NCBI GenBank assembly: GCA_964446935.1
Contig: CAYUQI010000006.1
Coordinates: forward strand, 218-64,217
DNA length: 64,000 bases
Direction of reading: 5' to 3'
Origin: an uncultured Pseudomonadota bacterium
GTDB taxonomy: Bacteria > Babelota > Babeliae > Babelales > RVW-14
Positions within the stretch are counted from its first letter, which is position 1; each line of letters begins with the position of its first letter. Positions 2-63,110 of the stretch are shown here, piece after piece. The translations under genes were made by a program, and so were the position numbers. The notes beneath the pieces were generated by a model, which saw only the letters and a program-made list of their open reading frames with translations, did no database searches and was not told the origin of the DNA.

Positions 2-238
2 GAGTGGTTTACCAATCATGAAGAAGGTTCTAATCCGAATGATAGCCATAGACGATGTCCAAATTGTCGAAAACGTATCAATAAATTTATACAAATGGCG
101 ATGGAACATGATACTCGTTACGCTCGAATCATTCATGAGAAGCAGCAGGCGAGAAAAGCTGAAGCGGCACAGGAAAATGAAGAATTTGGAATAGATCTAG
201 AAGATGATGTTTTGATACCAGATCCTCTGGATGAATAA
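2..238 (+). CDS. 3' end of a CDS cut by the window edge; C-terminal half of a RING-type zinc finger (eukaryote-like E3 ubiquitin ligase candidate)
   Basis: Frame is open from nt 2 to TAA at 236-238. It is absent from the ORF track because there is no start in the window. Translation is ...EWFTNHEEGSNPNDSHRRCPNCRKRINKF...; W-x(n)-C-P-x-C-R is the typical last Cys pair of RING fingers. An acidic tail follows. Confidence 0.45.
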   Translation, partial: EWFTNHEEGSNPNDSHRRCPNCRKRINKFIQMAMEHDTRYARIIHEKQQARKAEAAQENEEFGIDLEDDVLIPDPLDE

Positions 239-346
239 GTATCTGTTTCCTCTGTCATTTCCAAAATTTTTTTGCGATAATTCTTCCAATGTTCTATAAA
301 ATCCCCCCCCAACAAATCTTTTCAAAAAACGAAAGGACCCTTTGCC

Positions 347-1147
347 ATGAATTCAAAAAAAGTTTTATCATGTGCTTTAATCTGCGCATCTATAAATATC
401 TTAAACATCCTTGCTATGGAAACTAAGCAACTTATAGATGTTAAGCAAAATCCACAACCCAGCCTTCCTTTAAATACCGAAACAGACCATTTTAAACTAT
501 ATTGTATGTTCAATGATAAAGAGGCGGCTAAAAAAGTATTGGACGTTGCTGAACAAAATCTCAAAAAGCTTTCTGAAGATTTTAAGCATCCCTACAGCAC
601 GAAAATAAATCTTTATGTGTTCCCATCATTGCAAGAGCATCATAATGCTATTGGATGGTCGTCAGCAGAAGATTGGCTTGTTAATGCGATGTTTGATGAG
701 ACGCATTCATTTTTTACCGTTTCTCCTGCCAACCCAGGACCGCAGCATTCTGCCGAGAGTATTCTTAAATTGAATATTGTTGGACTTACAGAATTATTTA
801 TTAAAGATGCCTACAAGAACGTTCCAACTTGGTTTGGTTTTGGAATTGGTCTTTTGAATGCTGATTGGAAGAGTACAAAAACGCTTAAAGAATTAGCACA
901 AGATCATACAAAAATCCCTACGTTTGAGCAATTAAACAGTTCCTCCCAAACATCTGATGCACAAATGATTCGCCAGAACGCTTCGTATTCAGTTATTGAA
1001 TACCTTAATAAAACAAAGGGCTGGGATATTATCCGAGCATTGCTTGCGGATTTTTCTTCATTTGAAAAAATACTTGGGGTTTCGCAAGAGGTATTTAGAA
1101 ATCAATGGATTGAATATTTAGATTCTACGTATTTAGATAAAAAATAA
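347..1147 (+). CDS. hypothetical secreted protein
   Basis: 266-aa ORF with an N-terminal hydrophobic signal-like segment (VLSCALICASINILNILA). AAAGGA lies upstream of the ATG and a strong hairpin terminator follows. I can name no reliable family motif. Confidence 0.6.
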   Translation: MNSKKVLSCALICASINILNILAMETKQLIDVKQNPQPSLPLNTETDHFKLYCMFNDKEAAKKVLDVAEQNLKKLSEDFKHPYSTKINLYVFPSLQEHHNAIGWSSAEDWLVNAMFDETHSFFTVSPANPGPQHSAESILKLNIVGLTELFIKDAYKNVPTWFGFGIGLLNADWKSTKTLKELAQDHTKIPTFEQLNSSSQTSDAQMIRQNASYSVIEYLNKTKGWDIIRALLADFSSFEKILGVSQEVFRNQWIEYLDSTYLDKK

Positions 1148-1162
1148 ATAGACTTAGATCCA

Positions 1163-61442: not shown

Positions 61443-61623
61443 AAAATGACTAATTTGATCAAATTCGTTTATTTAATTAATTCTAATAGAAAAAACAATA
61501 TTCGTCAAATGGGTATTGGACATAAACACTAAACAAGAGTATGGTTTGGGTATTCTAAAAAAAATGAACTTTTTTTAATGTTTTAAGTTTCATATTTATT
61601 TTTAAGAGCTTTGAGGAGTTTCT

Positions 61624-62139
61624 ATGAAAAAATACTTAGTTATGACCTTTTTAGTCTTTGGAACAAGTTTGTTTATATCCAATGTTCAAGCAATGGATAA
61701 AGAAGAAAAAGAATTATCACAAAAAATAAAAGATAAAATCACAATGTTTCAAGAAGGTGCAAGGAGCTTACTTAAGCAGAACAACAAACAAGTTATGAAA
61801 AAGAGACAAGATTTATCAAAAGAAGAAAAAAAAGCAGAAAGGCTTAAGGAAGGAGCTGCCGCTTTTCTTAAACTTGACGAAGATGATCAGGATATGTTGA
61901 TAACAAATCCAAATATGTTTTTGACAATGAAATGTATCGTTAAAAGGGATAAACTAACTACGTCAAATAAAAATAGACCCCAAACAAAGAAAAAAGAACA
62001 AAGATGGCAAAAAGCTGAAACTGCATTCAATCAACTTAACGATAAAGAAAAGCAAGAACTTCGGGTCATGTTGAGATACTATCCAGAAATGTTTAAGGCG
62101 ATGAAGTTTGTGCATAAATGGTCAAAAAGATTAAATTAA
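61624..62139 (+). CDS. hypothetical secreted Lys-rich protein with two internal repeats
   Basis: GAGGAG SD and a signal peptide. The repeats are ...FLKLDEDDQDMLITNPNMFLTMKCIVKR and ...FNQLNDKEKQELRVMLRYYPEMFKAMKFVHK. Confidence 0.55.
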   Translation: MKKYLVMTFLVFGTSLFISNVQAMDKEEKELSQKIKDKITMFQEGARSLLKQNNKQVMKKRQDLSKEEKKAERLKEGAAAFLKLDEDDQDMLITNPNMFLTMKCIVKRDKLTTSNKNRPQTKKKEQRWQKAETAFNQLNDKEKQELRVMLRYYPEMFKAMKFVHKWSKRLN

Positions 62140-63110
62140 GATTCTAATTCATAAAAAAGTATGTATGGGGTAAGCGTATTGCCTCCTTTTATCAGTTTAC
62201 GTGCTTGGAGTAATACATCCTGCCCTGCCCTACACTGTTTTATGGTTTTATCATTACATAGAAACCAATCATTATCGTTGTTGACTAAAGCGACAAAATG
62301 TCCTTTTTCTAAGTGGTTTCCTCTGTGCAACACGATACTTTTAAGTTCATACGTTTTTCCCTGTATTGAAAGATGTTTTTGAACATCGATTGGTACCATG
62401 TTTTTACGTTCATATGCGTCAATGCGTTGTAAAACTAAAGTAAGTATGGGTGGTAACGGTTGGATAAAATGCCATGTTTCATATTTGGTTGCCAGCGTTG
62501 TTGCAAGACAATCACACACAGAAATTCTGTTTGCTTGTGATGGAATAAAAAGGCGCATGATCGGCATAGTGTTTGTGCATGTTGTATGACAATACCAATT
62601 GAGTTTCTTGATGTGAATAGTAAAGAGGTGTTGCAATGTCCGTGATAACGTGGTGAATAACAGAGTAAAAAACTCATGTGCATCATGATTTTGCTGACGC
62701 ATTTCATGAAATAAATAATTCCGTGCCCATGCTTTGAACAATGCGGGATCATATGCTCTAGATGTCGAATGCATGGTTGCTAACGTATTCATAAATAAGG
62801 TTGTACCATCGAAGCAGTTGTTATTGACAATGGTTTGGTAGACCGCGGGGTGCTTGCCGGACTTGGCTAATGCACCCATGAGTTGAGATGTTTTTTGGAT
62901 GGATATACGAACTTTTTGAGGGGGTTTTTGGTCGATGGCATAATTCATAACAGGATTGAGATTTGCCAAACATTGCAAGACGCAGTTCATGTAGCATTCC
63001 GCACCATTATTAATGAGGCCACAGGGCAAATTAATACATGTTTTCTGTTGCCCATTCATAAAGCCTATGCAACCGATTAATCCAAAGAAAAATGGACGTA
63101 GAATTTTCAT
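62136..63110 (-). CDS. eukaryote-type ubiquitin-specific protease (USP/UBP, peptidase C19), short form
   Basis: Cys box GLINNGAECYMNCVLQCL (Cys codon 62994-62996), QQNHDAHEFFTLLF, and His box HRGNHLEKGHFVALVNNDNDWFLCNDKTI. The N-terminus is signal-like. Confidence 0.8.
   Translation of the reverse strand: MKILRPFFFGLIGCIGFMNGQQKTCINLPCGLINNGAECYMNCVLQCLANLNPVMNYAIDQKPPQKVRISIQKTSQLMGALAKSGKHPAVYQTIVNNNCFDGTTLFMNTLATMHSTSRAYDPALFKAWARNYLFHEMRQQNHDAHEFFTLLFTTLSRTLQHLFTIHIKKLNWYCHTTCTNTMPIMRLFIPSQANRISVCDCLATTLATKYETWHFIQPLPPILTLVLQRIDAYERKNMVPIDVQKHLSIQGKTYELKSIVLHRGNHLEKGHFVALVNNDNDWFLCNDKTIKQCRAGQDVLLQARKLIKGGNTLTPYILFYELES

Follow-up and report, generated by a model that had tools for sequence, protein, structure and literature searches.

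The 64,000-nucleotide stretch of contig CAYUQI010000006.1 analysed here (hereafter the window) is core chromosome of a bacterium of the Babeliales (Dependentiae/TM6), a lineage dependent on protist hosts. The explanation that we find probable is that this conserved core carries, interleaved at a few slots, genes for eukaryote-like proteins with Sec-type signals, including three cysteine proteases of the ubiquitin or ubiquitin-like (UbL) type: two predicted ubiquitin-specific proteases (USPs, family C19), here USP1 and USP2, and one predicted membrane-anchored, circularly permuted enzyme resembling Ulp1 and the CE clan. An initial annotation had proposed a ubiquitin-pathway toolkit dispersed among housekeeping genes, in which writers (RING, F-box) and erasers (USPs, a ubiquitin C-terminal hydrolase or UCH) would act together. 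Erasers are present, but no threshold is reached by the F-box or by the RING, and a ubiquitin writer in the window is not demonstrated. The idea of a ubiquitin toolkit in this phylum is itself already known (Babela, 2015).

A conserved backbone with variable slots

A scan of the GTDB species representatives for DnaN gave 26 loci of 57–77% identity. Relatives with an informative title are all Candidatus Babeliales, Dependentiae or TM6 metagenome-assembled genomes, the remaining labels being uninformative, and Babeliales are a host-dependent lineage. The relatives keep the backbone order dnaK-carD-miaA-ppiD-recA-infC-...-rny-ymdB-lptFG-eamA-gmk-proS-xerD-dnaN-recF. NCBIfam and Pfam together support dnaA, dnaK, carD, miaA, a PpiD/SurA-like chaperone, recA and RNase Y, as well as LptF/G, gmk, proS, a XerD-like recombinase, dnaN and recF; Pfam calls were judged throughout against the gathering score of the family (PF00443, 23.9; LRR_4, 27; Ank_2, 27.3; C12, 27; PF12937, 24.3).

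The candidate genes occupy separate slots among core genes, over a distance of 25 kb, and do not form an island; the core neighbours originally named for them (dnaN-recF, gmk-proS, miaA and xer genes) are supported by NCBIfam. The variable slots, with one to three genes each, are miaA-ppiD, gmk-proS, xerD-dnaN and the region downstream of recF. A repeat search of the window found no flanking direct or inverted repeats and no insertion sequence (IS) elements, its matches being at chance level only, and neither integrase/att structures nor tRNA-linked boundaries were found there: the single tRNA, a tRNA-Gln at 6091–6165, lies at least 30 kb from all candidates, and an Rfam scan of the window returned no other non-coding RNA. 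The XerD-like gene was considered as an island integrase and rejected, since it is syntenic in all relatives; it is the sole recombinase in the window. The absence of mobile boundaries, as first described, is therefore upheld, and so is the absence of a compositional shift. The GC content of the window is about 39% and flat along its full length; GC content at third codon positions (GC3) is 0.311 in the candidates and 0.337 in the core genes (p=0.18), and synonymous codon usage shows no shift between the two sets (p=0.71). The candidates have a slightly lower total GC (p=0.03), which stems from their amino-acid composition.

On gene age the picture is divided. The initial annotation took these genes for old, domesticated acquisitions or for a lineage-wide repertoire, which fits the permuted Ulp1-like gene, the only candidate that is old and positionally conserved in the lineage, and fits the set of domain families; it does not fit USP1, USP2, the ankyrin gene and both leucine-rich repeat (LRR) genes, whose slots are empty or otherwise filled in relatives. 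A Pfam census of 90 open reading frames (ORFs) from the slots of relatives yielded 19 ankyrin and 2 RING genes, plus Sel1, PP2C and others. This census and the variable slots together indicate that the domain-family repertoire is lineage-wide, with individual genes turning over fast at fixed hotspots.

Sec-type N-termini, called by a crude heuristic, are found on all six complete candidates, as the initial annotation had noted for most of them, and on 26 of the 57 window proteins. The many signals in the window agree with Chromulinavorax, in which 44% of the proteome is signal-bearing (PMC6561590).

Three predicted ubiquitin or ubiquitin-like proteases

The assignment of USP2 (62136–63110, minus strand), a compact C19 protease with a Sec signal, is solid. 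It matches PF00443 over the full length of the profile (117.6 bits, E 9e-34), its closest solved relatives in the PDB are the eukaryotic USP15, USP12, USP46 and USP14 (about 1e-7 to 1e-8), and the catalytic residues can be read directly from the sequence: Cys in GLINNGAECYMN, His in GHFVAL and Asp in CND, within a Cys box GLINNGAECYMNCVLQ and a His box GHFVALV..WFLCND. USP1 (59631–61442, minus strand), a Sec-signal protein of deubiquitinase type with a Gln-rich C-terminal extension, scores 19.8 bits on PF00443, under the 23.9 cut-off, yet it covers profile positions 1–239. With an independent USP hidden Markov model, made from seven other Dependentiae USP domains and excluding the window sequences, both its Cys and its His box align (40 bits, E 8e-13), and in the His-box region it is 40% identical to USP2 (BLASTP, E 3e-11); a single-sequence PDB search was uninformative. 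Judged by its boxes (GLMNNANYCFANAALQ; GGHYTALV...WFLCND), which read as intact, USP1 is a divergent USP, and the original count of two USPs stands. Both enzymes share the Cys box, the His box and the full catalytic triad with the eukaryotic USP12/46, USP14 and USP15, and they differ from these in their bacterial Sec signals, in the minimal 300-aa domain of USP2 and in the high divergence of USP1. Isopeptidase activity of both on ubiquitin conjugates is predicted.

Between the two USPs lies a Lys-rich, Sec-signal orphan (61624–62139, plus strand) with no significant Pfam match, which accompanies both of them on the independent short contigs L001–L003. None of 26 relatives has a counterpart of the USP1-orphan-USP2 block after recF. 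Most of these (L004–L029) have after recF an ORF-free gap of 500–900 bp (about 0.5–1 kb downstream), followed by a conserved minus-strand block of proteins of about 170, 460, 150 and 420 aa; at this position the window carries the USP block instead. Two hairpin terminators (59528–59606, plus strand), one with an 11-bp stem and one with a perfect 18-bp stem, each with a T-rich tail, separate recF from the convergent USP1. The gene after USP2 (63465–64000, plus strand) continues in L001:190–891; its product is an orphan of 233 aa that bears a signal and has neither a Pfam match nor a counterpart among the fetched relatives. The variable block after recF therefore reaches past the window.

The third protease is encoded beside gmk (50755–52287, plus strand; probable start Met24 at 50824). 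This conserved, membrane-anchored protein is predicted to consist of a signal/anchor, a helical module (about residues 90–262), a transmembrane (TM) helix (264–288) and an alpha/beta catalytic domain (291–510, nucleotides 51625–52284), with the motif residues Q307, C313, H466-W467 and N488-S489. The AF2 models, for which the family alignment was used, reach a mean pLDDT of 87.6 for the full protein and of 91.8 for residues 291–510, the latter with a pTM of 0.89. An exhaustive profile search of 1.84 billion proteins gave a family of about 129 representative relatives. Across 68 aligned representatives there is almost no variation at Q307, C313, H466 and S489; nearly every family member has D, N or E just before S489, and the H-W pair (W467) is invariant in all 17 members aligned for it. 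An aromatic residue that follows the catalytic His is a gatekeeper typical of deubiquitinases and of UbL, Gly-Gly-specific proteases (PMC7391069). Read from these motifs, the protein is a cysteine protease of the permuted Ulp1-like type and not a UCH, and it is probably specific for ubiquitin or a UbL protein.

The UCH-like label first given to this gene thus names the wrong family. UCH/C12 (PF01088) scores 18.6 bits against a cut-off of 27, over 38 residues only (305–343, around the Cys); just 1 of the 68 family members gives any C12 match, and no UCH was returned by the PDB profile search or by the Foldseek search of the PDB with this domain. A Josephin-like identity, suggested by the HW...NS motif, was likewise dropped, as the profile matches are SseL and Ulp1 and not Josephin.

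Assignment to the CE clan, which we regard as probable, comes from several lines of comparison. The best PDB matches of the catalytic-domain profile are SseL (E 0.02) and a Ulp1-like SUMO protease (E 0.17), both non-significant; the profile aligns HW...(D/N)S with the His strand of SseL and Q..CG with the Cys motif of the CE clan. The order of the motifs, Gln-Cys...His-Asn, is opposite to the canonical His-Asp-Gln-Cys and points to a circular permutation. When the Gln-Cys block was relocated to the C-terminus in 17 members, 3 of the 17 matched PF02902 Peptidase_C48 (best E 3.3e-5), one weakly matched ElaD/SseL_C and another, also weakly, YopJ (E 0.16), all of them CE-clan families; the de-permuted window sequence itself had no match, and the SseL match was lost when the de-permuted profile was run against PDB sequences. 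Other searches added little: a single-sequence PDB search with the protein was uninformative, the full-length AF2 model gave only helical-bundle noise from the N-terminal module against the PDB, and a word-indexed search with the family alignment returned no members beyond the same three proteins. With the effector proteases SseL of Salmonella, ChlaDUB1 of Chlamydia and LupA of Legionella and with eukaryotic Ulp1/SENP (C48, PF02902) the protein shares the His-Trp, Asp/Asn-Ser and Gln...Cys-Gly motifs, and it differs from these CE-clan enzymes in the order Q-C...H-D as against H-D-Q-C, in having no significant sequential structural match and in that its activity is a prediction. ChlaDUB1 is membrane-anchored too.

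Contigs of 17 relatives span the slot, and in 12 of these relatives the family adjoins gmk. In at least eight relatives, namely L007:3623–5431 and seven from the profile search (P0035, P0045, P0072, P0086, P0087, P0113 and P0119), the same helical-plus-TM N-terminal module is followed by a bona fide USP domain instead of the permuted head; the L007 protein matches PF00443 with E 2.6e-30. In L007 the gmk-proS slot holds this USP-headed member and then a truncated copy with the N-terminal module only, and in L012 and L013 the gmk-adjacent family is present as tandem duplicates. The swap of the permuted head for a USP on a conserved module is the strongest indirect argument for an equivalent function of the two heads. 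The helical module carries nearly invariant residues of its own (R188, D250 and P256), has no Pfam or PDB match and is an uncharacterised domain. We tentatively propose, at somewhat less than an even chance, that the gmk-adjacent proteins are an uncharacterised, Babeliales-wide family of membrane-anchored ubiquitin/UbL proteases, in which a helical-plus-TM targeting module bears interchangeable heads, either permuted Ulp1/CE-clan or USP.

The closest known parallel is Babela massiliensis, from the same phylum, for which Pagnier et al. (2015, PMC4378268) described one F-box and one RING protein, three C19 hydrolases that are secreted, and Ulp1-like peptidases of permuted type; they took Babela to exploit the ubiquitin system of its host. 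Yeoh et al. reported F-box, LRR, WD40 and TPR domains from all the TM6 genomes that they examined. The permuted enzyme was presented there as a Ulp1 homolog of derived, circularly permuted form that is fused with an AAA ATPase, and it was called unique to Babela (PMC4378268). The inventory of Babela also includes LRR and ankyrin proteins and signal peptides on the permuted Ulp1-like peptidases, and its permuted consensus, Q..sCGYHALYN ... HWITcV..FIFADSLg.dRT, matches the consensus of the window family in its motif blocks; this comparison was made by eye, in an optical character recognition copy of Additional file 13, and carries no alignment statistics. There are clear differences as well: permuted Ulp1 is joined to an AAA ATPase in Babela and to a helical module and TM helix here, where a scan of the family found no AAA match; the window family is conserved beside gmk in many Babeliales and USP-swapped in some relatives; and the effectors of Babela are partly described as lying in ankyrin-rich islands, whereas those of the window lie in single slots.

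Repeat proteins, candidate writers and neighbouring genes

The miaA-ppiD slot of the window holds two LRR genes, both on the minus strand. The longer encodes a Sec-signal protein (38747–40432; probable start Met54 at 40273) whose LRRs, proposed from the outset, are well supported by LRR_4 (29.3 bits against 27), LRR_EndoS (33.2 bits) and PDB matches to 4fs7 (E 3.9e-15), TpLRR and the SspH1 LRR. Within the gene, at 38777–39463 on the minus strand, about eleven tandem coding repeats of 60 nt (20 aa) are found; measured against the reference copy, identity is 79–84% for the inner copies and 64–67% for the two at the ends, which suggests a recent expansion or homogenisation of the repeats within the gene. 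These 20-residue LRRs of bacterial type, matching those of SspH1 and TpLRR, recall the IpaH/SspH effectors, from which the protein differs in having no NEL ligase domain. Upstream of the repeats stands an F-box-like motif, LDVLPPEILVLIANFV ... LLSMKRACKYLQTI, split by a Ser/Thr-rich low-complexity insert. Its LPPEIL-type start motif ahead of a repeat domain resembles that of Legionella AnkB/LegU1; the difference is that the motif in the window is interrupted by the insert and scores under the cut-off of PF12937, the only F-box family surfacing for this protein, and SKP1 binding would be putative.

The shorter neighbour (37898–38701, minus strand) has a Sec-signal-like N-terminus and a short C-terminal LRR-like region. 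It had been called an LRR paralog; the similarity to its neighbour is real but weak (BLASTP, 23% identity over 184 aa, E 5e-7, plus matches in the repeats), there is no Pfam match, and this similarity is the sole basis on which it is a candidate paralog. Five relatives have nothing in the miaA-ppiD slot; in L038 a nitroreductase occupies it, and in L034 three ankyrin genes do, of which two are tandem copies. These two, L034:6709–8166 and L034:8228–9685, have identical Pfam scores on every line and are apparently identical, which would indicate a very recent tandem duplication in the slot that holds the LRR genes of the window.

The xerD-dnaN slot, which in relatives ranges from about 100 bp to 6 kb and often contains ankyrin genes, here holds a Sec-signal ankyrin gene with about two or three repeats (55501–56349, minus strand). 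Beside it lies an orphan (56386–56868, minus strand) with a signal/anchor and a hydrophobic N-terminus, for which no Pfam family and no counterpart in relatives was found. Between proS and xerD a gene at 53825–54568 (plus strand) encodes a 247-aa signal-bearing protein with a partial match to M50 (site-2 protease). In all relatives examined xerD directly follows proS, and the gene therefore looks like another lineage-specific insertion.

The RING-like fragment (2–235, plus strand) is the C-terminal piece of a gene cut by the window edge and shows only W-x16-CPNCR. Just the last Cys pair (CPNC) lies in the window; a full RING, with eight zinc ligands in C3HC4 or C3H2C3 spacing, would have the other six upstream of base 1. 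The spacing resembles the RING-H2 end in the relative L010:7115–9250 (...CIVVW-x12-CPMCR).

Elsewhere in the window, an orphan gene beside dnaA (7583–8800, minus strand) encodes a 405-aa signal-bearing protein with two internal domain copies of about 130 aa, YELDFDVENKTGQTVYVTCFAYQRK... and YELDFAVENTTGKPIIVTCFVYQKK..., and no Pfam match. A secreted low-complexity protein of 529 aa (19783–21372, plus strand) has Lys/Glu-rich repeats, a duplicated PSTWK...GQQR motif and no Pfam family, and its gene coincides with a sharp spike in AT skew (0.249 at 20001–22000). On the minus strand, 21444–24565 and 28340–30832 read as two apparently separate MacAB-like efflux modules within 10 kb, one with a periplasmic adaptor, an ABC ATPase and an FtsX-type permease and the other with an adaptor and a permease; a nitroreductase, an acetyl-CoA-synthetase-like gene and an orphan lie between them.

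Alternative explanations and significance

Under the explanation that we prefer, the three proteases would be exported and would then strip ubiquitin or UbL marks from host proteins or from the surface or compartment of the bacterium, and this removal may blunt targeting of the parasite by way of ubiquitin. Scaffolds that bind host proteins may be the role of the LRR and ankyrin proteins. Genes of this kind, compositionally native in their slots, would come and go one at a time at a large number of hotspots, by insertion, by tandem duplication and by the swapping of domains, and would not travel on mobile islands.

Several observations weigh against this explanation. The activity, secretion and host localisation of all candidates are read from sequence alone, and we know of no route from periplasm to host in Dependentiae. 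The permuted protease is below every Pfam threshold, and Foldseek with the confident domain model (residues 291–510) found no significant match in the PDB or among viral structures, SseL being seventh (TM-score 0.30–0.36, E 0.66); this null result is probably due to Foldseek aligning sequentially, the domain being permuted. K/R residues are slightly in excess after the TM helix (2.66 vs 2.02), a weak bias (29 of 53 members), and the topology so predicted would, weakly, put the catalytic domain in the bacterial cytoplasm. Such a location would fit a host target poorly, unless the protein enters a host-facing membrane, and leaves room for a housekeeping role. The ankyrin assignment holds but is marginal (Ank_2, 28.7 bits against 27.3, with single-repeat models under their cut-offs). 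The two proposed writers fare worse. PF12937 gives E 0.073 (13.3 bits) on the native long LRR protein and E 0.0089 (16.2 bits) with the insert excised, both under the 24.3 cut-off, and a word-indexed search found no homologs of its N-terminal/F-box region; the F-box is not established. The RING-like fragment has no profile match, and its RING identity is unconfirmed. The proposal that writers and erasers reside together here accordingly loses its writers.

Two other functions can be considered for the gmk-adjacent protein. It might be a housekeeping enzyme of the inner membrane, in which a helical module would act as sensor in the periplasm and a cysteine protease would process bacterial substrates in the cytoplasm, as its position among core genes in the 12 relatives, its native codon usage and its N-terminal signal/anchor, second TM helix and K/R excess would suggest. 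We think this unlikely: the bias in charge is weak, the H-W gatekeeper, which is invariant, is typical of proteases specific for Gly-Gly, and a housekeeping gene would not usually show the tandem duplication, truncation and loss that this family shows in relatives. In at least eight relatives, moreover, USP domains are joined to the same N-terminal module, and to our knowledge bacterial USP domains are known only as eukaryote-directed enzymes. Still less probable is an acetyltransferase of the YopJ/LegCE type, acting on host proteins through its Cys-His-Asp triad. The CE clan does include acetyltransferases sharing both the triad and the Trp after the His (PMC7391069), and one de-permuted member weakly matches YopJ; the matches to Ulp1/C48 and SseL are stronger and more frequent, however, and in relatives a USP protease domain can take its place.

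The wider reading can also be challenged. The window may simply sample abundant secreted repeat proteins and orphans, among which a few USPs occur by chance, functionally linked neither to each other nor to E3 ligases, so that there is no coherent toolkit. The unconfirmed writers, the signal-like N-termini on nearly half of the window proteins, the many orphans, the scatter of the candidates over separate slots that are not co-conserved, and the generic nature of LRR and ankyrin repeats as binding modules all speak for this, and we give it a substantial minority share of our confidence. Against it stand the high density of three ubiquitin/UbL-type proteases per 64 kb, the persistence of USP1, orphan and USP2 together on independent contigs, and the documented ubiquitin-directed repertoire of the phylum (Babela, PMC4378268). 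That the USP and LRR genes form a young island, recently acquired from the eukaryotic host or from a co-infecting giant virus, would agree with their absence from the matching slots of relatives and with the eukaryotic nearest solved relatives of USP2. We consider it very improbable, since their GC3 and synonymous codon usage are indistinguishable from the core, no integrase/att, IS or flanking direct repeats were found, their signal peptides are of the bacterial Sec type and other Dependentiae have USP domains of this type as well.

Dependentiae are widespread and almost uncultured parasites of protists, whose subversion of the host is largely inferred from gene content. To the statement that they mimic ubiquitin-pathway proteins, which is already known, the window adds little; what it shows is the organisation, a fast-turnover accessory layer in fixed slots of a very stable backbone. 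The part worth pursuing is the gmk-adjacent family: it can be tested as a candidate deubiquitinase or UbL protease that spans the phylum and whose fold has an unusual topology. Should the permuted domain indeed cleave ubiquitin or a UbL protein, bacterial deubiquitinases would gain a new topological class, and what was earlier thought an oddity specific to Babela would be a virulence function close to the core in an entire phylum of protist parasites.

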